A DNA stretch of 61,661 bases, taken from contig CAYJMQ010000001.1 in NCBI GenBank assembly GCA_964371555.1, positions 10,882-72,542 of the forward strand. The letters are read 5' to 3'. Origin of the DNA: an uncultured bacterium (GTDB lineage Bacteria; Bdellovibrionota; JACOXK01; 2-02-FULL-40-11). The notes beneath the pieces were generated by a model. That model was not told where the DNA came from. It saw nothing but the letters and a program-made list of their open reading frames with translations, and did not search any database. Each line of letters starts with the position of its first letter. Position 1 is the first letter of the stretch. Positions 1,168 through 52,809 of the stretch are shown here, piece by piece. A program made the translations under genes and the position numbers.

Positions 1168-1203
1168 CCATGAATGTGGCCATGAATGTGGCCATGAATG
1201 GGG
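1168..1203. repeat. 12-bp tandem repeat x3 (CCATGAATGTGG)
   Basis: Direct reading gives two perfect units plus one with a single change. It lies in the noncoding or relic region upstream of dedA. Confidence 0.9.
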
Positions 1204-1249
1204 TGATTTTTCTTTTCATTTTGTTTCCTCTATCTCTATAATACAAACC

Positions 1250-1948
1250 ATGCGTTCAAAAAACATAAAAATAGGGTGGGGATTATTCTTTTTTATTCTC
1301 ATTCTTGCCATCTATTTTTTTACGCCGGCCAAGAATTATTTTTCGCGTGAGAATTTCGATGTTTTAAGAAAAATGGTTGAGGATCAGGGGGCTTATGCCC
1401 CCCTGGTCTTTATTGGCCTTTATGTGGCTGTCGCCATTCTTTGCCTGCCGGGATCGATCCTCACCATTCTTTCCGGCCTTATTTTTGGTGTCTGGGAAGG
1501 GACTCTTTATGTGGTCATCGGGGCGAATTTGGGCGCGTTTGCAACCTTTCTGATTGCGAGGCGCGTCGGGAGACACACCATTGAAAGATTTTTGCAGGGG
1601 CGCCGCCCGCAGGGCCGGCTGCTAAAACTCGATCGAAAGATTGAGGCAGGGGGATTCACTGTGGTTTTATGGCTGAGACTGATTCCTGTGATTCCCTATA
1701 ATCTTTTGAACTACGCGATCGGTCTTACCAAAGTTCGTCTCAAAGATTGTCTATTGGGAAATCTCTTGGGGATGCTCCCCGGTATTTTTGTTTATGTCAG
1801 TCTTGGCAATGCGGCGTCCCAGCTTTCTCTGACCGATCCCCGGGTTTGGACAAAGATCGAGGTGTGGGGTCCCTTTGTGCTTGTTATTCTGCTTTCGCTG
1901 ATTCCCAGGATCATAAAAATATGGAGGAAAGATGCGCCAAAATTATGA
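1250..1948 (+). CDS. DedA / TVP38-TMEM64 (SNARE-associated) family membrane protein
   Basis: Multi-pass membrane protein with the family-typical stretch LRLIPVIPYNLLNYAIGLT. ATG at 1250 was chosen; the upstream TTG at 1136 would add a His/Cys repeat. TATAAT at 1237-1242 suggests a near-leaderless start. Confidence 0.8.
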   Translation: MRSKNIKIGWGLFFFILILAIYFFTPAKNYFSRENFDVLRKMVEDQGAYAPLVFIGLYVAVAILCLPGSILTILSGLIFGVWEGTLYVVIGANLGAFATFLIARRVGRHTIERFLQGRRPQGRLLKLDRKIEAGGFTVVLWLRLIPVIPYNLLNYAIGLTKVRLKDCLLGNLLGMLPGIFVYVSLGNAASQLSLTDPRVWTKIEVWGPFVLVILLSLIPRIIKIWRKDAPKL

Positions 1949-3359
1949 TCTGATTGTGATCGGAGGGGGATCCGCTGGATTGGTCTGCTCGGCAGGCGCT
2001 GCGGCGATCGGGGCGAAAGTGGCGCTGATTGAGAAGAAAAAACTGGGGGGCGATTGTCTCAATACCGGTTGTGTCCCTTCAAAAGCGCTTATTCGATCAG
2101 CCAAGGTTATCCATACGCTAAGATCAGCGGAACAATTTGGAATCCGGGAGTGTCAGTTTGAATTTGATTTTTCAGACATTATGCGGCGTGTTAAAAATGT
2201 GCAGGGGACGATTGAGCCGCACGATTCGCCTGAAAGATTTAAGGGGCTGGGGGTTGATGTCAAATTCGGAAACTATTCTTTCAAGAGCGCTCACGAACTG
2301 ACAAATGGCGAGCATACCCTTTTTGGAAAACGAATTGTCATCGCAACAGGATCTTCTCCGGTTGTCCCTCCCGTCCCTGGCTGTGAAGAAGCGAAATGCC
2401 TGACGAGTGAAAATATTTGGGATATTCAATCGCTGCCAAAGCGATTTGTCATTATAGGCGGGGGTCCGATCGGTTCTGAACTGGCGCACGCTTTTTCAAG
2501 ATTTGGCAGTAAAGTAACCCTGATCGATTTTGCCCCCGGAATTCTGATGCGTGAGGATCCCGACTTGAAAGCGGTGATTGAGTCCCAATTCCAAAAAGAG
2601 GGGATTCAGTGTCGTTTCAGCGCGAAGGTTCAGCGTATTTTGCATGCGGCGACGCATCATATTGTGTCGATAGAAACTTCGGGGAGGGAAGAAAATTTTG
2701 AGTGCGACGCGATTTTTTTAGCCGTTGGAAGAAAGGCGAATACAGGCGGACTTGGGCTTGAGAAAGTTGGGATTGAGATGAATGAGCGGGGCATTGTCAT
2801 AAACGATTATGGTCAGACCTCTTTGAAGCATATCTATGCCTGTGGCGATGTGGCGGGCTCTTATCAGTTTACGCATTTTGCCGATTATCAGGCGAGAAGG
2901 GTTCTTCGAAACGCGCTTTTTCCCGGCAGGGCGAGGGTGGTCACTGATGTGGTCCCCTGGTGCACGTTTACCGATCCGGAACTTGCGCGTGTGGGGCTTT
3001 CAGAAACTGAAGCGAAGCAGAGAAAAATCGCGCATGATGTTTATAAGTACGAAATTTCCGAACTCGATCGGGCTGTTTGCGAGGGAGAAACCGCCGGGCT
3101 TGTAAAGGTGATTACAAAAAAATCTTCAGATAAAATTTTAGGGGCGGCCATTGTCGGGCCTCATGCGGGCGATCTGATTCAGGAACTTGTTTTGGCGCTT
3201 CAAAAAGGGATCGGACTAAAGACCCTTGCTTCGACGATGCATCCCTATCCGACGATGGCAGAGGTCTCAAAAAAGGTGAGCGAAGTCTGGCTGCGGAGCC
3301 TCTTAAAACCGTGGATGATAAAAATCCTTCAGGTTTATTTTCGAATGTTATTTCGTTAA
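1932..3359 (+). CDS. FAD-dependent pyridine nucleotide-disulfide oxidoreductase (dihydrolipoyl dehydrogenase / mercuric reductase-like)
   Basis: N-terminal GxGxxG (IVIGGGSAGL), redox-active disulfide GGDCLNTGCVPSK, second Rossmann motif GGGPIGSE, and a C-terminal dimerisation domain (HPYPTMAE). It overlaps dedA by 17 nt. Confidence 0.9.
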   Translation: MRQNYDLIVIGGGSAGLVCSAGAAAIGAKVALIEKKKLGGDCLNTGCVPSKALIRSAKVIHTLRSAEQFGIRECQFEFDFSDIMRRVKNVQGTIEPHDSPERFKGLGVDVKFGNYSFKSAHELTNGEHTLFGKRIVIATGSSPVVPPVPGCEEAKCLTSENIWDIQSLPKRFVIIGGGPIGSELAHAFSRFGSKVTLIDFAPGILMREDPDLKAVIESQFQKEGIQCRFSAKVQRILHAATHHIVSIETSGREENFECDAIFLAVGRKANTGGLGLEKVGIEMNERGIVINDYGQTSLKHIYACGDVAGSYQFTHFADYQARRVLRNALFPGRARVVTDVVPWCTFTDPELARVGLSETEAKQRKIAHDVYKYEISELDRAVCEGETAGLVKVITKKSSDKILGAAIVGPHAGDLIQELVLALQKGIGLKTLASTMHPYPTMAEVSKKVSEVWLRSLLKPWMIKILQVYFRMLFR

Positions 3360-5786: not shown

Positions 5787-6695
5787 GTTGATCAGGCATT
5801 AGGAACGATGGAATTTGGGCGGGTGATTAAAAAATGAAAGAAAAGACCATTTCAGAGTTAGCAAAAGAATTATATGAGGCAATGACGGATCCTGAAATAG
5901 GAGAAAGACAGTGGAATAGATCAGATGACGAAGATAAAAAAATTGAAGAGTTCTGCGCACGTGTTCAAGATAAGAAAAAAATATCTGACGCATTTATTGA
6001 GATGTATTTTCAGTATCGGCGGCCTCTCTATTATTTTAATCTTTTTTATTTTCTGAAGAAATATGCCAATTGGAAAGATTTTATAGAACGTATCCGGAAT
6101 GAATATCACACGCTTATCAATGCGTTTGATAAAGAAAAACCGAACGAAAAAAATGACGTGCTCATTGATGAAGATTGGGATATCTTAAAACATGAGGAAA
6201 ACTTACCCTATCCTTCTGAATTATTTAAATCGCGTGTGGAGTATTTTTTGCAAAAACAAGATTACAAGAAAGCAGACGGCTATCTTTCTCTTTTTTATGA
6301 GAAGGGCAAAGAGGGGGCTGAATATATTTCAGAGAATGTTAGGATTTTTTTTAAGAAATACGAAGAACTTAAAAAAGCAGGGGAAACCGATGATCAGAAT
6401 ATATTTGGTCTTATCTGTGGTTTACTGCGTGGGCTTATGTATGATGGTTCTGCCAAGTGGAGTATATCTTTATTTCGAGAGTTTATTTCGAAAGATTTAC
6501 GGTTTCTTTCTGAGGCCAGGCAGCTTATGGCAAAAGTTATAGGGCGACTCGATGACCTACATCCCCTGGATCCAATGAGAGAAAAGCCATTTTTTTTAGA
6601 ATCAGACAAAGAAATTCTCAAAGCCTTCTTCAAAGAAATATCTTTGCATGGTGTGAAGAAATAGCAGCGTTTGAACGGATGAATCCTGCAACGCC
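5787..6695 (+). repeat. Direct repeat R1 (partner R2 at 6857-7782)
   Basis: Shared left edge TTGATCAGGCATTAGGAACGATGG and shared right edge GATGAATCCTGCAACGCC. 6206-6695 is identical to 7293-7782 by eye, and the 5' part is diverged. Confidence 0.9.
5834..6664 (+). CDS. Hypothetical protein, paralogue 1 (276 aa)
   Basis: Long ORF with no recognised domain. The C-terminal ~150 aa are identical to the 6903-7751 product. Confidence 0.7.
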   Translation: MKEKTISELAKELYEAMTDPEIGERQWNRSDDEDKKIEEFCARVQDKKKISDAFIEMYFQYRRPLYYFNLFYFLKKYANWKDFIERIRNEYHTLINAFDKEKPNEKNDVLIDEDWDILKHEENLPYPSELFKSRVEYFLQKQDYKKADGYLSLFYEKGKEGAEYISENVRIFFKKYEELKKAGETDDQNIFGLICGLLRGLMYDGSAKWSISLFREFISKDLRFLSEARQLMAKVIGRLDDLHPLDPMREKPFFLESDKEILKAFFKEISLHGVKK

Positions 6696-8113: not shown

Positions 8114-8169
8114 TTTTATAGGAATATGGTTATTAAAAGCATTTTATAGGAATGTGGTTATTAAAAGCA
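8114..8169 (+). repeat. 28-bp tandem duplication (TTTTATAGGAATRTGGTTATTAAAAGCA x2) making up the nrdJ leader
   Basis: Two adjacent units differing at 1 nt. The array ends 10 nt before the GTG start, just upstream of the GGGGGA Shine-Dalgarno. Confidence 0.9.
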
Positions 8170-11100: not shown

Positions 11101-11731
11101 CTTTCTCGATATGCATAAAGAGGGGGCGGCGTTTCGAAGTCTCATGAACTGTTTTGCGATTGCAGTTTCGATGGGGCTTCAATACGGGGTTCCGCTCGAA
11201 GAATTCATCAATCAGTTTGCATTTACACGCTTTGATCCTTCGGGAGTTGTGAACGAACATGATCATATTAAGATGGCAACCAGTATTGTCGACTACATTT
11301 TTAGAGAGCTTGCGATGACTTATCTCGGTCGGTACGATCTTGTTCAAATTCCACCCAAGGATTCAGAGCATTTGAAACCGAAGACACTCCCTCACCATGT
11401 GAGTCAGCAAAATCAAAAGCGAAAAGCAGAGGAGGGATTTACGTTTGTTCTTCCGCCGGCGACGGATGAAGGGGGCGCTTCTCTAGAAATTGGAGGAATG
11501 GGTGAAATTGGGGGAATTAGGAGAATTGGGGAAAATGGAGGAAATGGCGCAGAGAATGGGGCAAATGGACATGAAGCAGGGAGCGGTCATATTGGATTCT
11601 CTCTTCAGAGAATGGCGCTGCTTCAGGGATACGAAGGGGATTCGTGCGGGGAGTGCGGGCAATTTACAATGGTAAGAAACGGGTCATGTTTAAAATGCGC
11701 CTCCTGTGGAACGACGTCCGGGTGTTCATAG
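8180..11731 (+). CDS. nrdJ: Adenosylcobalamin-dependent ribonucleotide reductase, class II (long form)
   Basis: 1183 aa with a GTG start. Active-site region [22 protein letters not shown] and C-terminal Cys-rich tail DSCGECG...CLKCASCG. Confidence 0.92.
11487..11570 (+). repeat. Degenerate short tandem units (GGnGAAATTGGGG-like) encoding a Gly/Asn/Glu-rich linker in the NrdJ tail
   Basis: Encodes [28 protein letters not shown] between the catalytic body and the Cys-rich tail. Confidence 0.6.
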
Positions 11732-17458: not shown

Positions 17459-18322
17459 ATGATTAAACTCCTTCGCTTAAATATTGTCCTCACCTTCCTC
17501 CTCATCATCTGGGGGGGCGTTGTCAGAAATTTTGATGCGGGGCTCGCGTGTCCAGACTGGCCGCTCTGTCATGGCAAGGTCATTCCCCCGCTGGATCCTC
17601 TTGTCTTAATTGAGTGGGGGCATAGGCTGCTTGCTGCGGTTGTTGGGTTGCTGACGCTTGTGGTTTCATTTTCTTATCGAAAGAAATTTGGTTTCATTGC
17701 GTTTCTGCCGCTTTTGCTTGTTATTTTTCAGGCGCTTCTTGGGGGGGCAACGGTCAAAGGGATGTTACATCCAAAATGGGTTTCACTGCACCTCGCTTTT
17801 GGGCTTCTCTATTTTGCAAGTCTGCTCTGGATTTTGCTTGAAGCGCGGCAAGCCTCTTTTCAAAGAAAATGGTCGGGCGGCTGGCTTTTCTGTCTGTTTG
17901 CGACACTTCTTGTTTATGGACAGGCAGTTTTGGGAGGGGGAGTTGCATCGAGTGGGGCCGGGCTTGCCTGCCCCGATTTCCCGACCTGCTATGGGGCATG
18001 GCTGCCTGAATTAAAAGGAGGGGTTGCCCTTCAGTTTTTTCATCGCGTGGGGGCATTTTTGGTGACCCTTGTTTCGGTTCTTTTGTTTTGGTTTTCTTAT
18101 CTTTTTAATGGGGTAAATGGGGTGAATGGGTGGGGATACGATTTCAGGAAAATGTCATTTTTGATTCTCATATTGACATTCATTCAGGTTGGACTGGGAA
18201 TTTCAAATGTGATCTTTAGACTCCCCGAATTCTTAAGTATTTTACATTTGGTTTTTGCGACACTCCTTTTTGCGAATTTCTTTATACTGACATATAAGGT
18301 GAAACATGCGCGCGTATCTTAG
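17459..18322 (+). CDS. ctaA: Heme A synthase (COX15/CtaA)
   Basis: Eight TM segments, paired Cys motifs CPDWPLC and CPDFPTC, and conserved His residues. Confidence 0.85.
   Translation: MIKLLRLNIVLTFLLIIWGGVVRNFDAGLACPDWPLCHGKVIPPLDPLVLIEWGHRLLAAVVGLLTLVVSFSYRKKFGFIAFLPLLLVIFQALLGGATVKGMLHPKWVSLHLAFGLLYFASLLWILLEARQASFQRKWSGGWLFCLFATLLVYGQAVLGGGVASSGAGLACPDFPTCYGAWLPELKGGVALQFFHRVGAFLVTLVSVLLFWFSYLFNGVNGVNGWGYDFRKMSFLILILTFIQVGLGISNVIFRLPEFLSILHLVFATLLFANFFILTYKVKHARVS
18107..18133 (+). repeat. 9-bp tandem repeat x3 inside ctaA (encodes NGVNGVNGW)
   Basis: AATGGGGTA AATGGGGTG AATGGGTGG, read directly. Confidence 0.85.
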
Positions 18323-20094: not shown

Positions 20095-22284
20095 ATGTTT
20101 CGAAGATTTCCGAGACGGCATCTTTTTTTGACGGTTTTTCTTTGTCTGGGGATTGTTCGAGGCTTGATTTGGAAGCCACATTCTCCTACAGGCTATTTTG
20201 ATTCTCCACATCGTATCTGCGGGGCAGTCGGATTTCCGTCCGACAGTATTCTAAAAGAATTAACCCTAAAAGAATTAACCATTGATGAAAAAAAGATCTG
20301 GGGGCATCTTGAGATTTTCCTGTCTTCAAAAATAAAGAATCATCGAAAAATTCGCCCCGTTGGCACACGGATCTGCTTTTCAGGGATCGTCCGTGAGGTC
20401 CGAAACTTTGGTATTCCGGCTGAATTTGATATGCGGCGAAAAATGCTCTCAAAAAAAATCTGGGGGAGGGTTTTTTTGGGACGCAAAGATTCGATTCAAA
20501 TTCAAAAAAACTCCGCTTTTTATCCTGTTGAGATCCTGAGGGAGCAGTTTTTTCACTATCTGGATCGATTCCAGTCTGGGGGGAGGCTTCTTAAGATGGT
20601 TGTTTTGGGAATACCTGCGATGACACGTGAGCAGCGCGATGATTTTATCGCGACCGGCCTCTTGCACGCTGTGGTGATTTCCGGTCAAAATATCGCGCTC
20701 CTTTTTTTCTTTTCCTTTTCGCTTCTTTATTGGCTTTTTTCGAGATCCGAATACATTCTCCTTCATTGGCCACTGCAGAGGATTCTTGTTTTCTTATCTT
20801 CAGCCATTCTTTTCTTTTTCTATTTTTTCTCGGGAGGGGAAATTCCAATTCTCAGGGCGAGTCTTATGGCCTTTTCTTCATTGATCGCGCTCTTAAGTTC
20901 GAGGCCCCAAAATGGACTCTATGCGTTGTCTGTGGCGACGGCGCTGATTTTAAATTTTATCCCCTCTTCGGCTCTGGATCCCTCCTTTCAACTCTCTTTT
21001 ATTTCTGTATTGGGGCTCTGCCTGACCCGTTTTTTTATTTCAGATATTCAAAAGAATCTCTGGAAAATGATATTCTTTTCCACGCTGATCTGCACAATCG
21101 TAACAGCCCCGATCGTGATTTATTATTTTCACAGGTTTTCTCTTATTGGAATTGCCGCAAATCTGGTTGTTACACCGCTCATGAGTTTTTTGATTCTTCC
21201 GGGTTCTTTTCTTATTACTTTTTTTTATTTTATTTCTGAACCTGTTTGTCATGTTTTAATGATGATTTTTGAGCCCCTGGCGCGATGGCTATTTTCTTTT
21301 ATCCATCTCCTTGCTTCTTTTCCTTTGAGCTCCGTGATTGTAAGGCCCCCTTCATTGCCCAGCCTTTGTCTCGTCTATGTCGGAATGGCGCTTCTTTTTT
21401 TCCAAAAGAAAAAGTTCTCATCAAAAAATTGGCTAACCGCTGTTTTGGCAGGTCTCTTTTTATTTTTTTTGTTTCCCGATCGGATGGGAGTTTTTTTCAA
21501 AAATGGGGGAGATCTTAAAATCTCTTTTCTAAGTGTTGGGCAGGGCGATTCAACACTCATAGAATTTCCTGATGGGGGGACGATGCTGGTCGATGCCGGC
21601 GGGATTCATCCTCATTTTGATATCGGCGAAAGACTTTTGGCTCCCTATCTTTGGAAAAAGGGGATCCGAACCATCGATGTATTGATTTTGACCCATTCGG
21701 ATTTTGACCATACGGATGGGGCGAGATTTTTGATCGATCATTTTGATGTAAAAGAAATGTGGATTTCGCAATGGAGAGGCGGAATTCATTACGAACATAT
21801 TTTGGAACTTTCAGAAATAAAAAATATCCCGGTTTATTTGATTTCAAAAGAGACAGGCATAAAGATTTTTAAAGGGGTTGAATTTCAATTTTTGAATCCA
21901 AAAAATGTATTTGAAAAAGCGACCGATAATCACCAATCGATTGTATTCAAATGCAGATACAAAAATTTTTCTGTCCTGTTTACAGCCGATATTGAAAAGG
22001 ATGTGGAAGAGGAGATCTCGTATTTCCCGCTTCAAAGCACTGTCTTAAAGGTTCCTCATCATGGCTCGAAAACGTCGAGCAGTCTCTCATTTTTACGCTC
22101 CGTAAAACCAAAATTTGCCGTTATCAGTTCAGGCTACGCGAATCGTTTTGGACATCCGCATGATGAGGTACTGCGGCGATACCGGGAGCTCGGTATCCCC
22201 CTCTTTCGGACCGATCAGGAGGGGACATTGGAAATTCGAACCGATGGTTCGTCGAGCTATTTCTTGAAGAAACCACATGTCTGA
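20095..22284 (+). CDS. comEC: DNA internalisation-related competence protein ComEC/Rec2
   Basis: Polytopic competence domain followed by a metallo-beta-lactamase domain (LILTHSDFDHTDG ... VPHHGSKTS). Confidence 0.85.
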   Translation: MFRRFPRRHLFLTVFLCLGIVRGLIWKPHSPTGYFDSPHRICGAVGFPSDSILKELTLKELTIDEKKIWGHLEIFLSSKIKNHRKIRPVGTRICFSGIVREVRNFGIPAEFDMRRKMLSKKIWGRVFLGRKDSIQIQKNSAFYPVEILREQFFHYLDRFQSGGRLLKMVVLGIPAMTREQRDDFIATGLLHAVVISGQNIALLFFFSFSLLYWLFSRSEYILLHWPLQRILVFLSSAILFFFYFFSGGEIPILRASLMAFSSLIALLSSRPQNGLYALSVATALILNFIPSSALDPSFQLSFISVLGLCLTRFFISDIQKNLWKMIFFSTLICTIVTAPIVIYYFHRFSLIGIAANLVVTPLMSFLILPGSFLITFFYFISEPVCHVLMMIFEPLARWLFSFIHLLASFPLSSVIVRPPSLPSLCLVYVGMALLFFQKKKFSSKNWLTAVLAGLFLFFLFPDRMGVFFKNGGDLKISFLSVGQGDSTLIEFPDGGTMLVDAGGIHPHFDIGERLLAPYLWKKGIRTIDVLILTHSDFDHTDGARFLIDHFDVKEMWISQWRGGIHYEHILELSEIKNIPVYLISKETGIKIFKGVEFQFLNPKNVFEKATDNHQSIVFKCRYKNFSVLFTADIEKDVEEEISYFPLQSTVLKVPHHGSKTSSSLSFLRSVKPKFAVISSGYANRFGHPHDEVLRRYRELGIPLFRTDQEGTLEIRTDGSSSYFLKKPHV
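20251..20280 (+). repeat. 15-bp perfect tandem duplication inside comEC (encodes KELTLKELT)
   Basis: CTAAAAGAATTAACC x2, read directly. Confidence 0.9.
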
Positions 22285-22400: not shown

Positions 22401-23969
22401 ATGAACAAAAGGATTCTGGTCCTGTTTTTGGCTGCATGGCTTGTTTTTGCGATCGGATGTTCGAAAGAAGCAGATAAAAGGGATTCGTCAACAAATATAC
22501 CGGCCGGATCATTCAGCAGTGGCAATGGCAGCAGTGGCAATAGCGCAGATGAAGATTGGGGCTTAGAGACAGAGGCATGGAATTGCCAAGATTCTTTAAA
22601 GATTTTTTCGTATCTCGAGAAAGTTCATCTGAACGGTGAAAGAATCAAATCGGAAAAATGGATATTGGTGCGTGAAGCGCTTCGAAAGATTTTAGATAAA
22701 AGAAGAATCCCGACTCCGCTTATTTCAGTGTCTGAAAAAAGGGTATCTTATATAAACTTTATTCCTCCTGCGCTCCGCAGGTGTCAATTATTTCTGGATC
22801 AGATTGAAGATGAGAAAAAATATTGCGCAACGGTTGAAAAAATTGCTTCAGAGATTGAAACCGACGGTGTCCCTCCCTTCACACCCCTTACAAAAGAAGA
22901 GCTTCTTCGTTTGATTCACAAGGGAATCTTAAGATATTTTATTGCAAGCCTCGATCCCCATTCCTGGATGAACGAATGGATTGAATTTCAATCAAGAAAA
23001 GCGGGCATATTTTTTGATGTGGATCCGAACGAAAATGTTTTTCGTTCTCCTCCAAATATTAAAGATAACCCGGTTTTTAATTTACCCGCCCAAGATTCTT
23101 TGCATGCCCGTTTCTTTGGAGACGAAAATGAAATTTTATATATAGAACTTTTGCGATTTAATGAAACTTCGTCCGTCTCTTTTAAGAAAGAATATGAAAC
23201 CTTTGTCTCTCTTTCAGATAAAAGAAAAGGGTTGATCATCGATCTGCGCAGAAACGTTGGAGGGAGCGTTGCGGCCGTGGCAGAACTTTCGGATCTCTTT
23301 TTAAAGGAAGGACCCACACTTGTGATGAGGGAAAAAAAAGATGAGAACGAATGGGAAAATCATATCCGCTATGCGCAGATTGGAAATGAGCTAAATGGAA
23401 TCGATCGGCTTCCCATTGTTATCTTAATCAGTCGTTTCTCCGCTTCCGCGTCGGAGATATTTGCTTCGATCATGAAAGAATATCATGCTGCCGTCATTAT
23501 CGGCGAGCGTTCATTTGGAAAAGGGACGGGGCAGATCAACGGCCCGCTCACCGCGTTTCCATTGGGGGTGAAATCGCGCTCGGTTCTTTCAGTGACGACA
23601 GATTATACCTACTCTCCAAGCGGCAGGCCTCTTCAGCTGGAAGGGGTAGAACCGGATATTTATGTTTATGACCATGACTATCGTGATTGCCTTGAAAAGT
23701 GCCCCGCAGACCGACCGCACGAGCGTTGGATCGATCGCCAATTATTACCGAGCTGCTGTGAAAAGGCTTTTTTTGACGCGCATTATGAAAGAAATTTAAG
23801 AAACACCGTCCCCGTTCCTTTACCGCAGTCGACCTCTTTTAAAGAGCCCCCCTTTTCCACGATGAATTCATGGTGGCTCGATTTAAAACAAAAACTTGAA
23901 AAATATTTTTCTGATCTGAAAGGGGAATTTAGGCTCGGTTTACTCCTCGATTTTTTTTCTTCCTTCTAG
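22401..23969 (+). CDS. S41-family (C-terminal processing/tail-specific) peptidase-like lipoprotein
   Basis: Lipobox VFAIGC. S41 core motifs LIIDLRRNVGGS, the Ser in SRFSASASEIFA, and the Lys in ERSFGKGTGQ. Confidence 0.75.
   Translation: MNKRILVLFLAAWLVFAIGCSKEADKRDSSTNIPAGSFSSGNGSSGNSADEDWGLETEAWNCQDSLKIFSYLEKVHLNGERIKSEKWILVREALRKILDKRRIPTPLISVSEKRVSYINFIPPALRRCQLFLDQIEDEKKYCATVEKIASEIETDGVPPFTPLTKEELLRLIHKGILRYFIASLDPHSWMNEWIEFQSRKAGIFFDVDPNENVFRSPPNIKDNPVFNLPAQDSLHARFFGDENEILYIELLRFNETSSVSFKKEYETFVSLSDKRKGLIIDLRRNVGGSVAAVAELSDLFLKEGPTLVMREKKDENEWENHIRYAQIGNELNGIDRLPIVILISRFSASASEIFASIMKEYHAAVIIGERSFGKGTGQINGPLTAFPLGVKSRSVLSVTTDYTYSPSGRPLQLEGVEPDIYVYDHDYRDCLEKCPADRPHERWIDRQLLPSCCEKAFFDAHYERNLRNTVPVPLPQSTSFKEPPFSTMNSWWLDLKQKLEKYFSDLKGEFRLGLLLDFFSSF
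22514..22543 (+). repeat. 15-bp tandem duplication inside the S41 gene (encodes SSGNGSSGN)
   Basis: CAGCAGTGGCAATGG CAGCAGTGGCAATAG. Confidence 0.9.
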
Positions 23970-28787: not shown

Positions 28788-30004
28788 AAGTTGATCTTTG
28801 TGTGATTGGAGGGGGGCTTTCAGGGACTCTGTCTGCCGTTCATGCCGGATCGAAGGGGAAGCGGGTGGTTTTGGTCCGGAGTGGATGGGGGGGGACAGCG
28901 CTTTCCTCTGGGGCGTTCGATGTGGCAGATACATCTCATGAGGGTTTTGAGATCAGGGATCATATAGAACAGATTAAAAAAGAGTATCCCGACCACCCCT
29001 ATCATTTTCTGAATTTTGAAAATTTGAGCCCTGCTTTTGAGCTTTTAAAAAAGGTGTTTCCATTCCGGATCCTGGGATCGTATCGTGAAAATCATCTCTT
29101 TCTTTCACAAATGGGGCGTTGGCTCAGGCGCGCGTTTGCGATGGAATCCCAATCTTTTGATTTTAAGGTTTCTGGCCGGAGAAAGGCTCTCGTCATCGGT
29201 TTTTCACCAATGATCCCAGCCCCTCTTCTTCAGTCTGAACTCTGTATATCGGAATCAGTTCCGTGGCATCGCAATGAAGTCAATCTTCTCCCCCAGACGA
29301 TGGCAAAGTTTCTCGATCGGCCCGAGGAGCTTCAAAATCTTGCCAAACATATTAAATCAAAAATAAAATCGCATTTCTTCCAGGCGCTTCTGGTTCCGCC
29401 GGTCATTGGTCTTGATTATTTTAGTGAACGGCGGCGTGAGCTCGAATCCCTGATGGGATGCCCCGTCTATGAAACATTGGGGGGGAGCAATTCAGTTCCC
29501 GGTATCCGGTTTCAGAGGGGGCTCGTGGAAGCCCTCCGCTCTCAAAATATTGCCGTTATAAATGGAAGGGCTGAAAAAGTGAGAAAAGAAAAGAAAAAAA
29601 TTTTGGCAATCGGGGGATATGAAGACAGCGGAGATCTTTTTGAAATTGAAGCTTCTTCTTTTGTTTTGGCAACGGGGAAGTTTCTGTCAAGGGGGATTCG
29701 TATCAAAAGAAGTGGGCGCATTTTTCAGGAACCCCTCTTTCATCTCCCTTTATTTTATAGGGGAACGCCGGTTTCCGAGATGAGTCCAGGCTCTTTGTTA
29801 AGAGATGACTTTTTTGAAAAACAGCCTTTTTTGGAGGTTGGTGTAAAAACAAATCGTCGGCTTCTTCCACTGGACGACAGCGGAGAAATTGTTTATGAGA
29901 ATCTTCGTGTGTGTGGAACACTGCTTTATGGCTTTGATCCTTATGGGGGGGAGAGCCGGTTTGGCGTTTCCATGCTTTCGGGCTATCAGGCGGGGGAAGC
30001 ATAA
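28784..30004 (+). CDS. glpB: Anaerobic glycerol-3-phosphate dehydrogenase subunit B
   Basis: MKVDLCVIGGGLSGTLSAV...ALSSGAFDV parallels the E. coli GlpB N-terminus. ATGA overlap with the glpA stop. Confidence 0.8.
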   Translation: MKVDLCVIGGGLSGTLSAVHAGSKGKRVVLVRSGWGGTALSSGAFDVADTSHEGFEIRDHIEQIKKEYPDHPYHFLNFENLSPAFELLKKVFPFRILGSYRENHLFLSQMGRWLRRAFAMESQSFDFKVSGRRKALVIGFSPMIPAPLLQSELCISESVPWHRNEVNLLPQTMAKFLDRPEELQNLAKHIKSKIKSHFFQALLVPPVIGLDYFSERRRELESLMGCPVYETLGGSNSVPGIRFQRGLVEALRSQNIAVINGRAEKVRKEKKKILAIGGYEDSGDLFEIEASSFVLATGKFLSRGIRIKRSGRIFQEPLFHLPLFYRGTPVSEMSPGSLLRDDFFEKQPFLEVGVKTNRRLLPLDDSGEIVYENLRVCGTLLYGFDPYGGESRFGVSMLSGYQAGEA

Positions 30005-30016
30005 CCCAGAGGAATA

Positions 30017-30042
30017 ATCCAGAAGAACTATCCAGAAGAACT
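30017..30042. repeat. 13-bp perfect tandem duplication (ATCCAGAAGAACT x2), intergenic
   Basis: Read directly. Ends 3 nt before the ATG at 30046. Confidence 0.9.
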
Positions 30043-30045
30043 ATA

Positions 30046-34942: not shown

Positions 34943-34943
34943 A

Positions 34944-34997
34944 CGAAACTTGAGATATTGACCTGCTAAAAATACCACCCGGCGCCGAGTCCTCCAT
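34944..34997. repeat. B': exact 54-bp copy of 37033-37086 (3' ends of the ATP-grasp and OMP genes)
   Basis: CGAAACTTGAGATATTGACCTGCTAAAAATACCACCCGGCGCCGAGTCCTCCAT is identical at both loci by eye. Confidence 0.9.
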
Positions 34998-35061
34998 GCG
35001 GACGGCGATCTCTTTGGGACTTTAACCCGCGCTTTTCCGGATTTATCCTCATAAGATCAAA
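34998..35061. repeat. A': copy of 32710-32772 (3' end of the lipid kinase CDS) with one extra A
   Basis: GCGGACGGCGATCTCTTTGGGACTTTA(A)CCCGCGCTTTTCCGGATTTATCCTCATAAGATCAAA. It abuts B' with no spacer. Confidence 0.9.
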
Positions 35062-35172
35062 GTCTGGTGCTAAAGAAGGATATGTCTTCAAACGAGAGCA
35101 CTTTTAGATTTGCCTTTCCTAACAGTGGAAAATTCTTTTCAGGGTTGACCCATATGTGATATCAATATCGCC

Positions 35173-35769: not shown

Positions 35770-37058
35770 ACGAAAGAATTTTACTCCTGATTTCTACCAC
35801 AAGCTACCGAACACATGCCTTTGTTGCGGCTGCCAGTCGATTGGGGCTTTCGATGACTGTCTGTTCTGAACGGCCGAGTACTTTGCAGGCGAAGAATCCG
35901 CAAGGTTTTATCACAGCAGATTTTTTAAATCCTGAATCATTGACAAAAGTGGTTTTTGAATTTTCAAAAAAATATCCGATTGACGCTGTGATGGGTGTGG
36001 ATGATCAGACAGTCATTCCAGCCGCTCAGATTGCGGAGGTGTTGTCGTTAAAGCACAACCCAGTTTCTGCTGTTTATGCGACACGAAACAAGTATGAAAT
36101 GCGCAAACGGTTGGAAGGACATCTCCCTAGTCCCCGTTTTGGGCTCTTCACATTTTATGATGATGCCGCAAAAGTCGCTTCCTCGTTAGGTTTCCCCTGT
36201 GTCATTAAGCCGCTGTCATTGTCTCAAAGTCGTGGTGTGATGAGAGCGGATGATTTAGAAGATCTGAAAGGTAAAATCGCCCGATTGAAGAAAATTCTTT
36301 CCGATTCGTCGCCAGGTGTGGGCGAATGTTTTGAGAGTTATCTTGTTGAAGAATTTATTCCGGGAAAAGAGATAGCTGTGGAGGGATTGCTGATAAATGG
36401 AGAGCTTCGTATTCTTGCCATTTTTGATAAGCCTGATTCCCTGGATGGCCCCTATTTTGAAGAGACGATATATTTAACCCCAACTGAGCTCTCTCTTTCC
36501 ATCCAGGAACAAATTTCTGAAATAACTTCAAAAATTGTTTCCTTACTTGGCCTTTTTGAAGGGCCGATCCATGCAGAGTTTCGTCTGAATGAAAAGGGTA
36601 TCTATCTGATTGAGATAGCAGCGCGATCGATGGGCGGATTTTGTTCGAGCGTGTTGCGATTTGTGAAAAGTAAAGAAGAAGATCCTATCTCTTTGGAGGA
36701 GCTGATCTTTAGACAAAAACTTGGGAGGCAAAAACTTGGAATGGAAACGGAAGGGTATGAAAGAGAGAAAGATGCTGCGGGTGTTTTGATGATTCCTATT
36801 TCCAAAAGAGGGATTTTAAGGGGTGTTCATGGGAAAGAAACTGCAAGGGCTGTTCCAGGCATTGTTGATATGATCATCTCACTCAAGGAAGGAGAAGAAC
36901 TTATTCCACTTCCCGAGGGGGGACGATATCTTGGCTTTATATTTGCCCGTGGGAGAGCCCGTGGGAAAGCCCATGGGAAAGCCCATGGGAAAGAAAGAAG
37001 AGCGGTAGAACTTGCGCTTCGAGAAGCCCATTCGAAACTTGAGATATTGACCTGCTAA
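35766..37058 (+). CDS. ATP-grasp domain enzyme (carboxylate-amine ligase-like), substrate unknown
   Basis: The pattern NKYEMRKRLE...FPCVIKPLSLSQSRGV...LVEEFIPGKEIAVEG...IEIAARSMGG is typical of ATP-grasp folds. ATGA overlap with the nfu-like gene. Confidence 0.75.
   Translation: MNERILLLISTTSYRTHAFVAAASRLGLSMTVCSERPSTLQAKNPQGFITADFLNPESLTKVVFEFSKKYPIDAVMGVDDQTVIPAAQIAEVLSLKHNPVSAVYATRNKYEMRKRLEGHLPSPRFGLFTFYDDAAKVASSLGFPCVIKPLSLSQSRGVMRADDLEDLKGKIARLKKILSDSSPGVGECFESYLVEEFIPGKEIAVEGLLINGELRILAIFDKPDSLDGPYFEETIYLTPTELSLSIQEQISEITSKIVSLLGLFEGPIHAEFRLNEKGIYLIEIAARSMGGFCSSVLRFVKSKEEDPISLEELIFRQKLGRQKLGMETEGYEREKDAAGVLMIPISKRGILRGVHGKETARAVPGIVDMIISLKEGEELIPLPEGGRYLGFIFARGRARGKAHGKAHGKERRAVELALREAHSKLEILTC
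36711..36740 (+). repeat. 15-bp tandem duplication inside the ATP-grasp gene (encodes RQKLGRQKLG)
   Basis: AGACAAAAACTTGGG AGGCAAAAACTTGGA. Confidence 0.85.
36945..36992 (+). repeat. 12-bp tandem repeat x4 inside the ATP-grasp gene (encodes ARGRARGKAHGKAHGK)
   Basis: GCCCGTGGGAGA GCCCGTGGGAAA GCCCATGGGAAA GCCCATGGGAAA. Confidence 0.9.
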
Positions 37059-37702: not shown

Positions 37703-38623
37703 ATGAAAAAACAACTGGCGGTTTTCTTTTTCTGTTCTTCAGCGCTCATGCTTTCCTCCTGCTCTTTTAAATCTATCGCATTGAATATCACCGCGGATCT
37801 CTTTGAAGAGGGGCAGTCGGCGTTTGAAGAAGAGAGTGATCTTCAATTGGCCGAGCAATCGATGGGGGCGAATTTAAAGGTGCTTGAAGCGCTTCTTAAG
37901 TCATCTCCTGATCATGAGGGATTGCTTGTCCTTCTTTCAAAAAGCTATGGGGGGTATTCGTTTGCGTTTGTTGAGGATGCTTATGATGAATTAAAAACAG
38001 AAAATGAAACCAGGGCCGGTTTTCATAAAGAGCGCGCAAGCCGCTTCTATCTGCGCGCAAGGAATTTTTCTTTTAGGGTTCTTAAAGAGGATGCCGATTT
38101 TAAAAATGCGTTAGAGAGAGATTTTTCCACTTTTGCCACTTTTGAAAGATCTCTTGCGAATTTTGACCGTGACGATGTGCCGGCACTTTTTTGGACCGCC
38201 TACAATTGGGGGAACTGGATTAATCTCAATCTTCATTCACCTGCTGCGATTGCCGATGCCCCGAGGGTTGAACGTCTGATGAATCGTGTTTTGGATCTCG
38301 ATGAAAACTATTTCTTTGCGGGTCCGCATATTTTTTATGGAGTCTATTATGGCGGACGCCCCCCTATGCTGGGTGGAAATCCTTCAAAAGCGAGGAATCA
38401 TTTTGAAAAGGCGTTAAAACTTGCCAAAAGAAAGATCCTGATCACGCAGGTTCTTTACGCGCAGTATTATGCGCTTCCCACCGGAAATGAAGAGCTCTTT
38501 GAAGGATTATTGGGCGAAGTTATCAAGGCCGACGATCAGATCTATCCTGAACAGAATTTAATCACGCAGCTTGCCAAGAAAAAAGCGAGAAGACTTCTTG
38601 CAAGAAAGAGTGATTTATTTTAA
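37703..38623 (+). CDS. TRAP transporter TatT-component-like TPR lipoprotein
   Basis: Lipobox ALMLSSC and helical-repeat composition. Lies immediately upstream of the dctP-like gene, as in the TPR-protein-associated TRAP transporters described in Treponema. Confidence 0.6.
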   Translation: MKKQLAVFFFCSSALMLSSCSFKSIALNITADLFEEGQSAFEEESDLQLAEQSMGANLKVLEALLKSSPDHEGLLVLLSKSYGGYSFAFVEDAYDELKTENETRAGFHKERASRFYLRARNFSFRVLKEDADFKNALERDFSTFATFERSLANFDRDDVPALFWTAYNWGNWINLNLHSPAAIADAPRVERLMNRVLDLDENYFFAGPHIFYGVYYGGRPPMLGGNPSKARNHFEKALKLAKRKILITQVLYAQYYALPTGNEELFEGLLGEVIKADDQIYPEQNLITQLAKKKARRLLARKSDLF

Positions 38624-51255: not shown

Positions 51256-51266
51256 CTGTTTCGGAT

Positions 51267-52661
51267 TTATTCTGCCGGTACCACTCCAAAATATCGCCCC
51301 ATCCAGTAAGCCACGAGATAATCCATCCCGGCATAGACCTGCTCTTCACCCGTTCGGGGGGGCGGCGATGAGAGAACGGCCCGCCAGGGGCTGCTCTTCC
51401 AGTAATTGGAATTCATTGGGCGATTGGCAAGCGGTTGAATCTGATCGGTATCGTCACGCGCCATCCAGAGTTCGTACTTTTCAATTGGAAAGTCACGCAG
51501 ATCTTCAATAATGGGGGCCATGCGCGGCGTTTCAACGGGACTAATGGTGGCGATATAGGGAATCGAAAACATCGGGTTTCTTTCGTATCGCATAAATTTC
51601 CACATCCCTTCCATCCCTCGTCGAATTGACTTCATATACTCTCGCCGTGGCTCCTGAAAAAAGAGTGAGAGATAGGCCAATCCCAAAGCCTGCATGTCAG
51701 AAAAACTCGGTTTGTCAAAATCAGGTCCCCGTTTGTCTCCGACAAATCGCTTAATGCTTTGTCCGAGAAGTTCAAGCGACCAGCCAATGGTTCGATACCA
51801 CGACTTAATCTCTTTTCGATAAACATCGGCCAACTCCCGATCAAAAAACTGGGCTGAGACAAGCATGTGGAGCACAAGCATTTGATTAAAACCATTGGCA
51901 ATCTGGGGTCCAAGATCTCCAAACTCTGTCCTTTGTCCGTTCCAATCGATTATCTGATAATTGTTTTTGGCCAGTCGACGAACCAGCGGGAGCAAGAGAT
52001 CGAGAAGTTTTTGTTTTGTTGCGGGATGAAGCGCTATCTTTCCCTGACGCTCCAGCGCCAATGGGATTGCGGCGCCAAACGCGGCCAGATTGAGATGATC
52101 CTTCGCGACCCCGTTTCTAAACCATGTGCCACGAGGCCCCTGCATCCAGAATTTCGTCGGCCGGGACTGTTCGGTATCCATCCAGGAAAGTCTGGCCCCT
52201 CTGTAATCAGGCATCGCGGAGCGGGCCAGGAGACCCGGGATTCCAGTCGTTTCGTAAATTTTAAGGAGTCCTTCCGTGAGCAGACGAATCTTGTCATCCT
52301 GATCAATGCCGGTTACTGCTTCTTTGAAGGCATAGGCGGCAATCAAATACCCTTGCCAGGCCGGCAGATCAGCCACATCGTGACTCTTTTGATATCTTGG
52401 CGTGTCACTCCATGGAAAGAAAGAGGTGTAGAGAAGGAGCCCGTCTTTTGTGACATGCCGTAAAGTATTTTTTTCTATCAATGCTTCTTTTCGAAGAAGA
52501 TGTGGATCGGTTACAAACCACGGTCTCTTCGGCGCTGTCCGTGGTCCCGCAAAACTGACTGCCGCCTGAGATATAAGAAGAGAGATAATGAGACATATCC
52601 TGAGATGTAACCTGAGATATAACCTGAGATATAAGATGAAGAACCGGAAACGAATACCCAT
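51267..52661 (-). CDS. Hypothetical secreted protein (~464 aa)
   Basis: Start at MGIRFRFF, preceded by GGAGG. Long N-terminal signal-like region containing the YLRL repeat, then AVSFA. No recognised domain. The longest ORF extends to 52715. Confidence 0.6.
   Translation of the reverse strand: MGIRFRFFILYLRLYLRLHLRICLIISLLISQAAVSFAGPRTAPKRPWFVTDPHLLRKEALIEKNTLRHVTKDGLLLYTSFFPWSDTPRYQKSHDVADLPAWQGYLIAAYAFKEAVTGIDQDDKIRLLTEGLLKIYETTGIPGLLARSAMPDYRGARLSWMDTEQSRPTKFWMQGPRGTWFRNGVAKDHLNLAAFGAAIPLALERQGKIALHPATKQKLLDLLLPLVRRLAKNNYQIIDWNGQRTEFGDLGPQIANGFNQMLVLHMLVSAQFFDRELADVYRKEIKSWYRTIGWSLELLGQSIKRFVGDKRGPDFDKPSFSDMQALGLAYLSLFFQEPRREYMKSIRRGMEGMWKFMRYERNPMFSIPYIATISPVETPRMAPIIEDLRDFPIEKYELWMARDDTDQIQPLANRPMNSNYWKSSPWRAVLSSPPPRTGEEQVYAGMDYLVAYWMGRYFGVVPAE
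52599..52634 (-). repeat. 12-bp tandem repeat x3 inside the signal-peptide region (encodes YLRLYLRLHLRI on the minus strand)
   Basis: Plus strand reads CCTGAGATGTAA CCTGAGATATAA CCTGAGATATAA. A further dispersed unit lies at 52565-52576. Confidence 0.9.
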
Positions 52662-52779
52662 ATGAATCCTCCCCATTTTTGCAATACCAATGATGTTGTC
52701 TTTCGAGTATGGCATAAGCGAAAAATTAATTCAAAAATTTTTATCCGCGCAGTATATTACGCTCAAAATCCCCTTGACC

Positions 52780-52809
52780 CAAAATACTCTTGAACAAAAT
52801 ACTCTTGAC
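52780..52809. repeat. 15-bp tandem duplication (CAAAATACTCTTGAA / CAAAATACTCTTGAC) in a divergent promoter region
   Basis: Read directly. Each unit ends in a TTGAA/TTGAC -35-like motif. Confidence 0.85.

Follow-up and report, generated by a model that had tools for sequence, protein, structure and literature searches.

The 1.93-Mb genome studied here (G000), from an uncultured groundwater bacterium, carries tandem duplications of 9-15 bases (mode 12), in 2-4 copies, at about five times the rate, or retention, of its relatives. Purifying selection weeds out the duplications that break reading frames, and a large share of the arrays differ from random slippage in that the duplicated block starts with CC (usually CCA) and stops immediately short of A-W-N-G-A (W being A or T; mostly AAAGA). 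We give roughly even odds to the reading that these young, genome-wide, frame-filtered arrays are made in part by a sequence-directed break, extension and rejoining, with TopA as the candidate for the nick. Hereafter, the window is the whole 61,661-nucleotide stretch of this genome that was analysed, and a slash in a motif marks an array or block boundary.

Density, youth and reading-frame filter

Perfect tandem duplications with a period of at least 10 number 111 in G000 (57.5/Mb), as against 12.5/Mb in its congener (G001), 7.5/Mb in a family member, and 12/Mb in 12 pooled relatives, all the genomes compared being draft metagenome-assembled genomes and the relatives being sampled at 60-400 kb each. 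None was found in a 200-kb sample of E. coli. The elevated array density claimed in the first-pass annotation therefore holds. With the REP-type arrays set aside, the densities are 50.2/Mb in G000 and 11.0/Mb in the relatives. Moreover, the excess is similar in coding DNA (41.3/Mb vs 8.3/Mb in relatives, 5.0x) and in noncoding DNA (207/Mb vs 49/Mb, 4.2x), which points to the supply of mutations, not to a loosened constraint on proteins, as its source. TRF returned 216 arrays with a score of at least 50 and 120 with a score of at least 60, far above the ~9 and ~1, respectively, obtained from order-1/3/5 Markov simulations. Compared with the genome as a whole, the window is only slightly enriched (11 arrays of score at least 50 for 6.9 expected, and 7 perfect arrays for 3.5 expected), and the Poisson-like counts per 20-kb bin (mean 2.25, variance 1.97) mark the trait as genome-wide, with no hotspot in the window.

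Selection against frameshifts, which had been proposed from the window, is evident genome-wide: by a crude custom caller based on ORFs and codon usage, the period is a multiple of three in 56 of 62 perfect arrays in coding sequence and in 19 of 39 noncoding ones (Fisher P=5e-6). The period counts, for which gene calls are not needed, have the same shape, with 52 arrays of period 12 beside 6 of period 11 and 7 of period 13, and 16 of period 15 beside 5 of period 14 and none of period 16. In the relatives, such periods are found in 12 of 15 coding arrays vs 1 of 9 outside coding sequence. The surviving genic arrays are those whose units add repeats of 3-5 residues to loops, linkers, tails, and signal peptides.

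Where G000 DNA aligns with that of G001, about 20 of 28 G000 arrays are absent or collapsed in the congener, several of them having zero copies there, while G001 has only about 4 arrays of its own among 15.

A junction signature at the array boundaries

The 5-mer immediately 3' of the array is AAAGA 32 times, for 1.38 expected (P=3e-32). Other enriched flanks are ATAGA (8 vs 0.37 expected), ATCGA (8 vs 0.74 expected), and ATTGA. Taken as NAWGA, the motif stands at one end of 50 of 179 arrays (~28%) and at both ends of none of the 97 arrays of period at least 10 tested for this. When the repeat phase is anchored on the flank, the unit begins with CC in 43 of these 50 (P=4e-46) and with CCA in 28, so that the block boundaries on the complementary strand read 5'-TCWTN/(N7-13)(T)GG/. 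The signature is found in coding as well as noncoding DNA and has no gene-strand bias (the coding strand reads AAAGA in 14 cases and TCTTT in 10, a further 11 being noncoding), nor is there any relation of motif orientation to the local GC-skew sign (15/14 and 11/10). Genome-wide, CC placed 9-14 nt upstream of AAAGA is only weakly enriched (+5%, z about 3).

The same boundaries also delimit single, non-duplicated blocks. Bounded by CC.../AAAGA, these account for 19 of the 124 blocks extra in G000 (1.55 expected) and 11 of the 77 extra in G001 (0.95 expected), or ~15% of the indels of at least 9 nt between the two congeners in both directions. That some three in ten arrays share a common junction points to a site-directed mutation process over plain copying slippage.

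Arrays of the window

All 12 arrays listed in the first-pass annotation were recovered by TRF and direct reading at the same coordinates and with the same unit and copy number, and their units are perfect or differ by 1-3 bases. With coding status taken from Pfam domains and ORFs, the arrays at 18107, 20251, 22514, 28734, 36711, 36945, and 52599 and that of the NrdJ tail lie in coding sequence with periods of 9, 12, and 15, in keeping with the earlier claim of multiples of three within genes; those at 1168 (period 12), 8114 (28), 30017 (13), and 52780 (15) are noncoding. For eight of the 12, a comparison was possible with the closest relatives (~89-90% nucleotide or 92-95% protein identity), in which all eight are absent or shorter, which makes them young. 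The arrays below were identified by TRF and direct reading unless other sources are named.

Among the noncoding arrays, that at 1168..1203 (12 nt x3, unstranded; CCATGAATGTGG twice, then CCATGAATGGGG) precedes by ~50 nt the probable ATG at 1250 of a gene with a DedA/VTT domain (VTT via Pfam). Its left flank ...GGTCTTT/ is /AAAGA on the opposite strand, the array is motif-positive (C1:12049), and its counterpart in G001 is one diverged copy only. At 8114..8169 (plus strand), 28 nt x2 with 1 mismatch form part of the nrdJ 5' leader, downstream of a promoter-like TTGACA-N17-TACTAT site and ahead of the GTG start at 8180; the junction ...TACTAT/ is a near-variant with no match to the motif, and L115, a related contig of 90% nucleotide identity, has a single copy and a 28-nt gap. 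The intergenic array between glpB and a ferredoxin gene spans 30004..30044 (13 nt x3, unstranded), with an older CCAGAGGAATAAT followed by two perfect copies of CCAGAAGAACTAT and the right flank /AATGAAGA; it is motif-positive (C1:40898), and G001 has the first copy only, with a 26-nt gap. In the divergent promoter region from 52715 to 52904, three units of 15-16 nt at 52764..52810 (unstranded) each hold a TTGAC -35-like hexamer and are followed by /AAAGAAAT; no alignable counterpart was found in the relatives.

In coding sequence, the degenerate 9/18/27-nt array at 11487..11570 (plus strand; TRF) encodes part of the Gly-rich linker that precedes the C-terminal Cys-rich tail of the class II ribonucleotide reductase NrdJ. 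Here, L115 is without 45+9 nt and G001 without 36+9+9 nt, and the protein alignment has 15+3-residue gaps in a 95% identical homologue. In CtaA (COX15-CtaA family), the 9 nt x3 at 18107..18133 (plus strand; TRF, direct reading, Pfam) follow the left flank ...TTATCTTTTT/ and are 1 unit fewer in G001, with a 9-nt gap. The perfect 15 nt x2 (LKELT LKELT) of ComEC at 20251..20280 (plus strand; TRF, direct reading, Pfam) have no junction microhomology, have ATTGA, an enriched A-W-N-G-A 5-mer, as right flank, and are exactly 1 copy in G001. At 22514..22543 (plus strand; direct reading, Pfam), close to the N-terminal end of an S41 peptidase, 15 nt x2 with 1 mismatch have the left flank ...GGATCATT/, which is /AATGA on the opposite strand, where the unit begins with CC (CCATTGCCACTGCTG); in G001 the divergence of this region is too high for alignment. 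The glpA C-terminal tail, itself diverged in G001, holds 12 nt x3 (2 perfect and 1 diverged) at 28734..28769 (plus strand), directly preceding the glpB start at 28784, with ...TCATCTTT/ as left flank (motif-positive, C1:39613).

Two arrays share one ATP-grasp/L-amino-acid-ligase-like gene, for which no orthologue was found in G001 or the other relatives. These are 15 nt x2 with 3 mismatches at 36711..36740 (plus strand; direct reading, Pfam; left flank ...GATCTTT/) and, near the C-terminus, 12 nt x4 (ARGR ARGK AHGK AHGK) at 36945..36993 (plus strand), whose right flank is /AAAGAAGA and whose anchored unit is CCCATGGGAAAG (motif-positive, C1:47843). On the minus strand at 52599..52634, 12 nt x3 (LYLR LYLR LHLR) separate the n-region from the h-region in the signal peptide of a secreted protein of 450 aa; read on the plus strand, the unit is CCTGAGATATAA with right flank /GATGAAGA (motif-positive, C1:63489), and an additional dispersed copy lies at 52569-52580. 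This block is missing in six homologues at 92-93% identity, the DNA having also been compared with contig L114. Besides the arrays of the first-pass annotation, there is a perfect 9 nt x2 at 38127..38144 (unstranded; C1:49008; unit CCACTTTTG, right flank /AAAGATCTC), and a further perfect 9 nt x2 of GATCCATGG at 58997..59014 (unstranded; TRF; C1:69878), which on the opposite strand has the unit CCATGGATC and the flank /AATGAAGC.

Candidate mechanisms and known systems

In the mechanism that we put forward, a sequence-directed strand break would set one boundary at TCWTN/, the 3'-OH would be extended over roughly one turn of the helix, displacing the strand ahead, and the displaced 5' end would be rejoined instead of trimmed, leaving a tandem copy; once two copies are present, further gain or loss would be easy. 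A nick at 5'-TCWTN/ would put C at position -4, where all bacterial topoisomerase I enzymes prefer cytosine (PMC6101483). We therefore offer TopA, speculatively, as the leading candidate for the nick, an enzyme with this preference that keeps the 5' end covalently bound and the 3'-OH free. In the work on yeast rad27/FEN1 mutants (PMC13493898), a short non-repeated block beside a nick is likewise duplicated by flap rejoining, un-trimmed flaps give direct duplications, a type IA topoisomerase held covalently on a flap is a recognised situation, and protein-linked flaps of Topo III from strand displacement are a recognised intermediate. The passages available of that study (PMC13493898) concern yeast mutants and describe no sequence-specific anchor, whereas in G000 polA is present with its 5'-nuclease region and the junction is sequence-specific.

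The topA gene is present. Against the choice of a specific enzyme, however, the single TopA is 94% identical to that of the congener, and P471L is its only unique substitution at a conserved column, no more than in a control genome. As there is no C at -4 at the CC boundary, a topoisomerase site leaves that boundary unexplained. Against the generality of the break-and-rejoin mechanism, the strict flank motif is found in only ~28% of arrays, and the remainder may arise otherwise. Moreover, in at least one three-way comparison CCCCCTACT precedes ATCGA with no template within 15 kb, which suggests that this block was inserted de novo, contrary to a copy-the-neighbour model. The several arrays with zero copies in G001 likewise count against the mechanism.

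The first-pass annotation had proposed a raised rate of slippage or microhomology-mediated duplication. While the raised rate stands, neither microhomology as a rule nor generic slippage does: no extra matching base is found at the junction of 45 of 111 arrays, and ordinary copying followed by frame selection, in which the motif would reflect only polymerase pausing or a stability preference, predicts neither the fixed 5-mer flank, nor the CC-started units, nor the single blocks with the same boundaries. Loss of mismatch repair, of recJ, or of another obvious repair function is not the cause either, the suggested gene inventory having shown mutS, mutL, and recJ, likewise xseA and polA, to be intact, and to our knowledge MutS does not handle 9-15-nt loops. 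Ordinary slippage is nevertheless a possible, if improbable, explanation of the whole. It is consistent with the frame filter, with arrays being young, and with their expansion to 3-4 copies; the strict motif is missing from 72% of arrays; and the partial extra copy of at least 3 nt in 44 of 111 could be the microhomology used. The same process and filter are, moreover, documented in other systems (PMC8639346).

We consider it unlikely that the arrays stem from an enzyme, whether a sequence-specific endonuclease or transposase-like, that cuts the two strands in a stagger, at /CC on one and at TCWTN/ on the other, 9-15 bp apart, with fill-in and rejoining giving a target-site duplication without an insert and repeated hits building arrays. 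Two sequence-defined boundaries, a narrow length range around ~12 bp, strand independence, and multi-copy arrays with a single AAAGA end and multiplied CC starts speak for it, the last being what such an enzyme would predict. However, a variable stagger is atypical of these enzymes, the de novo blocks stay unexplained, and a search of the assembly for reverse transcriptases and Y1 transposases gave none.

Quite unlikely, too, is an error of Okazaki-fragment maturation at primase start sites, whereby a fragment would start with the AAAGA strand and a block as long as a primer (~10-13 nt) by the junction would be duplicated or lost through mishandled flaps. Noncoding units of 10-14 nt match the length of bacterial primers, but known primase recognition is of triplets, shorter than the conserved 5-mer; a lagging-strand process should also be biased with GC skew, which the motif is not, and the 5'-nuclease region of polA is present. 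In its favour are, again, the duplications from mishandled flaps seen in rad27 yeast (PMC13493898). Very improbable, finally, is drift of mildly harmful insertions under relaxed selection or in a small population, or an assembly artefact: although glpA has two in-frame stop codons and insertions are more numerous and longer in G000 than in G001 (124 vs 77 events, 2442 vs 1134 nt), the noncoding excess is as large as the coding one and the noncoding/coding density ratio matches that of the relatives, which means an unaltered selective sieve, while an artefact could yield no bias to multiples of three (12 and 15 far above 11, 13, 14, and 16) and the junction motif recurs in indels of a second, independently assembled genome.

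Lineage-specific, dense tandem duplications of 11-21 nt, in frame in housekeeping genes and of any period in intergenic DNA, are known from Ehrlichia ruminantium and, as VNTRs, from Yersinia pestis, and the arrays here are alike. Contingency loci, as in Haemophilus and Neisseria, consist of many copies of 1-8-nt units, turn genes on and off through frameshifts, and are concentrated in genes for surface structures. Their tract lengths change by slippage, and two of our arrays lie in a promoter or leader (8114, 52764); in contrast, the arrays here have 9-15-nt units in 2-4 copies, preserve the frame, and are distributed evenly across housekeeping genes. Microhomology-mediated tandem duplications (MTDs; PMC8639346) are similarly short, genome-wide, and reversible, with essential-gene survivors enriched for multiples of three, though in E. 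coli they were detected at 1/20 of the yeast frequency; they are defined by a microhomology pair at their ends, whereas the ends here are two different fixed words.

Close parallels are also found with the Borg elements of Methanoperedens (PMC9879509), which also have many young, mostly perfect repeats of independent origin at unrelated loci, with A- and C-enriched units, all ORF repeats being multiples of three and intergenic ones mostly not, as a genome-specific trait nearly missing from relatives. There, too, short peptide repeats often fall in secreted proteins, and a central repeat part of unexplained origin may be compared with the zero-copy arrays here. However, in Borgs the copies are more numerous, the units are longer, and the carrier is an archaeal extrachromosomal element, whereas ours are mostly 2-4 copies of 9-15 nt in a bacterial chromosome, and the passages available describe partial flanking repeats but no fixed flanking word or unit start like the CC.../AAAGA junction (PMC9879509). 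No published report of that junction signature was found. A high repeat density is thus a known kind of trait, and the junction signature is the new result.

Tandem arrays of the window and their counterparts in relatives

The first-pass annotation listed twelve short tandem arrays in the window, and both TRF and direct reading of the sequence show all of them to be real, with the periods and copy numbers it described. Using Pfam matches and a map of open reading frames to assign coding status, we found that every array within a gene does, as was claimed, have a period divisible by three (3n). These are the arrays in CtaA (start at 18107), ComEC (20251), an S41 peptidase (22514), the glpA tail (28734), an ATP-grasp protein (36711 and 36945), a signal peptide (52599), and the NrdJ tail (11487). 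The two arrays with periods of 28 nt (nrdJ leader, 8114) and 13 nt (30017) both lie outside genes, as do a 15-nt array in a promoter region (52780) and a 12-nt array situated 5' of a probable ATG at 1250 (1168). Elsewhere in the window, TRF detects a matching degenerate 12-nt repeat consensus at 6607-6644 and 7694-7731. The two sites correspond in their position within neighbouring genes that are similar in length (5834-6664 and 6903-7751). Since these genes look like paralogues, this repeat would predate the gene duplication.

Comparable window arrays are shorter or missing in relatives, in agreement with the young age proposed in the first-pass annotation. In the congener G001, which shares ~86-91% nucleotide identity with this genome, the CtaA array has one unit fewer, the ComEC unit is present as a single copy, and the arrays at 30017 and 1168 each have one copy versus three. 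Moreover, the 28-mer of the nrdJ leader (8114) is single-copy in a related contig, the NrdJ tail (11487) is shorter by 54 nt in two relatives, and the signal-peptide block (52599) is lacking in six homologues at 92-93% identity. For the arrays at 22514 and 28734, the G001 counterparts are too diverged for comparison, and no orthologue of the ATP-grasp arrays (36711 and 36945) was found in the relatives searched. In alignable DNA of a 400-kb G001 sample, about 20 of 28 arrays of this genome are absent or at zero to one copy. Among 15 arrays of G001 itself, about 10 are old, imperfect, and length-conserved, and only about four are G001-specific. Array copy number therefore differs between species of the genus. 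When proteins are clustered at 90% identity, CtaA, ComEC, the S41 peptidase, and ATP-grasp each fall into a cluster whose sole member is the sequence of this genome, and a search of the protein collection for strain-level variants returned no same-species sequences.

The glpA gene has an in-frame TGA at codon 23 (27186-27188) and an in-frame TAA at codon 438 (28434-28436), the respective residues being Cys and Tyr in 93%-identical homologues. As the frame is otherwise intact, the gene may have become a pseudogene recently or the stops may be sequencing errors; for the TGA alone, recoding is a further possibility. The stretch at 32589-37056, which includes the ATP-grasp gene with its two arrays, has no counterpart in G001 and resembles an insert that was acquired or is mobile; a close orthologue of the ATP-grasp protein is absent among 30 relatives. 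Directly after a lipid-kinase gene (32781-32890) sits a palindromic MITE-like element of ~110 nt with terminal inverted repeats CTAGATTCTGCTGAAAAAGTGTCAT...ATGACTTTTTCAGCAGAATCTA, for which BLAST gave 38 hits spread over 26 contigs here. The core, GTCATYCYGAG, is found 107 times in this genome and 43 times in 0.4 Mb of G001, and elsewhere the element forms tandem arrays of its own (14 of the 111 perfect arrays in the genome). Just upstream of the 1168 array, ~700 nt on G001 contig C34 lie between sequences that are contiguous at window 1134-1139, and this difference is either an insertion in G001 or a deletion here.

Genome-wide abundance and reading-frame bias

The source genome is a draft of 1.93 Mb in 91 contigs (44.6% GC), in which TRF returned 216 arrays scoring at least 50 and 120 scoring at least 60, versus about nine and one, respectively, in Markov simulations of order 1, 3, and 5. 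The window itself holds 11 TRF arrays where the density of the whole genome predicts 6.9, and it is ruled out as a hotspot by the Poisson-like array counts per 20-kb bin, whose variance near the mean shows that the duplications are genome-wide and evenly spread.

As a threshold-free measure, we counted perfect tandem duplications with at least two copies and a period of at least 10, excluding low-complexity units. This gave 111 in the 1.93 Mb of this genome (57.5/Mb), 5 in 0.4 Mb of the congener G001 (12.5/Mb; P=7e-6), 3 in 0.4 Mb of the family member G004 (7.5/Mb; P=2e-7), 24 in 2.0 Mb of twelve relatives pooled (12/Mb), and 0 in 200 kb of E. coli K-12, with the relatives sampled at 60-400 kb each and, like this genome, represented by draft metagenome assemblies. 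The elevated array density put forward in the first-pass annotation is thereby borne out. Three other relatives (G003, G017, and G013) have intermediate densities in small samples. The excess persists once the 14 REP/MITE-type arrays are removed (50.2/Mb vs 11.0/Mb in relatives), and it is of similar size in coding DNA (5.0-fold; 41.3 vs 8.3/Mb) and noncoding DNA (4.2-fold; 207 vs 49/Mb), which argues that arrays arise more often or are lost more slowly here, and not that proteins are under weaker constraint.

Selection against frameshifts, as had been suggested, is apparent from the perfect arrays, which are 3n in 56 of 62 cases within CDSs versus 19 of 39 outside them (Fisher P=5e-6). Likewise, TRF arrays in gene cores are 3n in 100 of 111 cases according to our home-made and crude gene calls, and periods of 12 and 15 far exceed those of 11, 13, 14, and 16 without any reliance on such calls. 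Because an assembly artefact would be blind to reading frame, the 3n bias rules out this origin. Relatives follow the same rule, as expected where purifying selection screens out frame-breaking lengths, and such a sieve on tandem duplications is well documented (PMC6749651, PMC8639346, PMC9879509). On contig C15 of this genome (24796-24823), we noticed a perfect 14-nt duplication in a called gene that differs from G001 by 15 nt (14+1), where one extra junction base appears to restore the frame.

Dense short tandem duplications that are 3n within genes are a trait of a known kind, for which Ehrlichia and Yersinia serve as examples, and the 5-fold excess seen here is modest next to known repeat-rich examples. 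Borg elements also carry dense short tandem repeats that are 3n in genes, and their published description mentions partial repeats at the flanks, enrichment in A and C, and a repeat core whose origin is unexplained, all of which resemble features of this genome (PMC9879509). Phase-variable contingency loci, which have 1-8-nt units in many copies that shift frames or promoters in surface genes, do not account for arrays that preserve the frame, consist of two to four copies of 9-15 nt, occur in CtaA, ComEC, NrdJ, and others, and are spread over the genome.

A junction signature at arrays and single blocks

To characterize the array boundaries, we used 179 perfect non-REP arrays with a period of at least 9, where the flank word was tested without prior choice after a listing of flanks had shown recurrence. 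Foremost, AAAGA follows directly after the array end in 32 cases against 1.38 expected (P=3e-32), then come ATAGA (8 vs 0.37 expected) and ATCGA (8 vs 0.74 expected), and the next enriched flanks are ATTGA, AATGA, and GATGA. The word N-A-W-G-A is found at one end in 50 of the 179 arrays and at both ends in none of the 97 with a period of at least 10. With the phase set by the flank, units start with CC in 43 of these 50 arrays (5.8% expected; P=4e-46) and with CCA in 28, the junction layout being 5'-(CC N7-13)n|AAAGA, or 5'-TCTTT|(N7-13 GG)n on the other strand. This structure, or a close variant, is present in 10 of the 12 window arrays. AAAGA is oriented along the coding strand in 14 cases and the template strand in 10, with 11 in noncoding DNA, and has no relation to local GC skew; no link with the replication or transcription strand was found. 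A strand-independent motif in both coding and noncoding DNA is a DNA-level rather than a protein-level feature.

In relatives, the junction flank is present in 5 of 55 arrays, and arrays bearing the motif are ~10-fold denser here (25.9 vs 2.5/Mb), those free of it 2.7-fold denser. Genome-wide, CC situated 9-14 nt 5' of AAAGA is raised by only about 5% here, with no clear signal in relatives, and this weak build-up suggests that potential sites are plentiful and mostly unmutated, with few being hit. Only occasionally could the flank be an old unit copy that has since diverged, given an identity of 0.32 vs 0.26 for random pairs and values of at least 0.6 in 5 of 50 arrays. Of the 111 arrays, 45 have no partial extra copy at the junction, 22 have one of 1-2 nt, and 44 have one of at least 3 nt, so the microhomology picture is a mixture; in arrays with the motif, the two boundaries differ from each other. 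A nearby template is rejected as the source of units, as a separate copy within 150 nt exists for only about 5 of 111 arrays. Among the few units with a nearby dispersed copy is that of the signal peptide, CCTGAGATATAA, an exact copy of which lies at window 52569-52580, 18 nt from the array start (52599) and 27 nt from the perfect run at 52608, in a different frame (LISQ).

The same boundaries delimit single blocks among the mostly unpolarised differences of at least 9 nt between this genome and G001 (332 kb aligned). Of the 124 additional blocks in this genome, 19 (1.55 expected) are CC-N7-10 blocks directly 5' of N-A-W-G-A, as are 11 (0.95 expected) of the 77 additional blocks in G001; they amount to ~15% of such indels and are not copied from adjoining sequence. 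These shared ends indicate that the same boundaries govern single-block gain or loss in both lineages, and arrays with zero copies in G001 can be explained by loss in one lineage with expansion in the other, or by de novo gain. In a three-way comparison of the window, G001, and a third population, a 9-nt block, CCCCCTACT, stands before ATCGA only in the related contig L115, and a search for its template within 15 kb found none; parsimony favours an insertion. Taken over the whole alignment, insertions are more numerous and longer here than in G001 (124 vs 77 events, 2442 vs 1134 nt), and the majority are not recognisable tandem duplications.

These events have boundaries set by sequence, fall within a narrow length range, are independent of strand, and involve gain and loss in two lineages.

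Candidate origins and wider meaning

We give moderate odds to a site-anchored, break-dependent origin of the duplications, whereby a directed break at 5'-TCWTN| would be followed by short strand-displacement synthesis from its 3'-OH, and the displaced 5' end would then be rejoined. In yeast, protein-linked flaps are known intermediates and flap-derived direct duplications known outcomes (PMC13493898). Several points count against such a break-extend-rejoin route: it does not account for the CC boundary or predict de novo blocks, TopA looks ordinary here, and neither a reverse transcriptase (RVT_1, PF00078) nor an IS200/RAYT-type Y1 transposase (Y1_Tnp, PF01797) gave a match in the 96.7%-complete assembly. 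With regard to a transposon or retroelement footprint, for which a fixed length would be expected, the duplication length is variable (9-15 nt), and the enzyme search comprised RVT_1 and Y1_Tnp.

TopA is a candidate for the breaking enzyme, albeit one with low odds. The seven most enriched flanks that show a real excess (AAAGA, ATAGA, ATCGA, ATTGA, AATGA, GATGA, and GAAGA) have G at +4, hence C at -4 on the other strand, and every bacterial topoisomerase I prefers a C at this position when it cleaves (PMC6101483). Also in its favour, the 5' end stays attached to such an enzyme after cleavage, and a 3'-OH is left. The protein is 94% identical to that of the congener, and its sole unique change at a conserved column is P471L. 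TopA thus has no striking substitution and is encoded by a single gene, as in relatives; no second type IA topoisomerase was found in this genome.

Loss of repair genes is rejected, as mutS (946 bits, intact 827-aa frame), mutL (intact, 568 aa), recJ, xseA, and polA (aligning to E. coli Pol I residues 9-928) are all present with frames that, judged from sequence, are open, and none contains an array. The inventory of mutS, mutL, and recJ raised in the first-pass annotation therefore finds all three intact, and xseA, polA, and a single topA are intact too, as in relatives. Mismatch-repair-deficient microsatellite instability is rejected on these grounds and by its typical units of 1-4 nt versus 9-15 nt here, loops of which are beyond the reach of MutS. 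A lost flap nuclease or ssDNA exonuclease (Pol I 5'-nuclease, RecJ, ExoVII) likewise appears improbable with polA, recJ, and xseA present. In the congener, the mutS match (G001:C11:26755-29094) holds one in-frame TAG, with mutS of this genome intact, which is the opposite of what mismatch-repair loss would lead one to expect.

In the literature consulted on such duplications, we found neither block ends marked by a conserved junction word nor single-block indels with matching ends. Our broadest reading is tentative and, as a whole, rather doubtful: a previously undescribed enzyme-directed process in this genus of uncultured Bdellovibrionota-like bacteria may insert, delete, and tandemly amplify 9-15 nt blocks at defined words, with a CC start and AAAGA directly 3', at least some blocks being de novo and not copies of neighbours. 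Either in this form or in variants that are specific to a lineage and use different anchor words, it could also lie behind the 'ruler-like' 11-17-nt tandem duplications that await an explanation in Borg elements, Ehrlichia, Yersinia, and several further lineages.

Bursts of in-frame short duplications are known from several unrelated prokaryotic lineages and Borg elements, with no mechanism established. Through them, essential proteins keep gaining small disordered peptide segments, and promoters and leaders are altered. The junction signature (P about 1e-32 and 1e-46) makes the vague idea of 'hyper-slippage' testable, as it pinpoints the exact phosphodiester bonds involved, predicts at-risk sites in any genome, and can be searched for in all other repeat-rich genomes. 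If confirmed only here, it would be a curiosity of a single genus; if a separate anchor word exists for every repeat-rich lineage, it would point to nick-anchored insertion mutagenesis as a general class of events that has been overlooked in prokaryotes.
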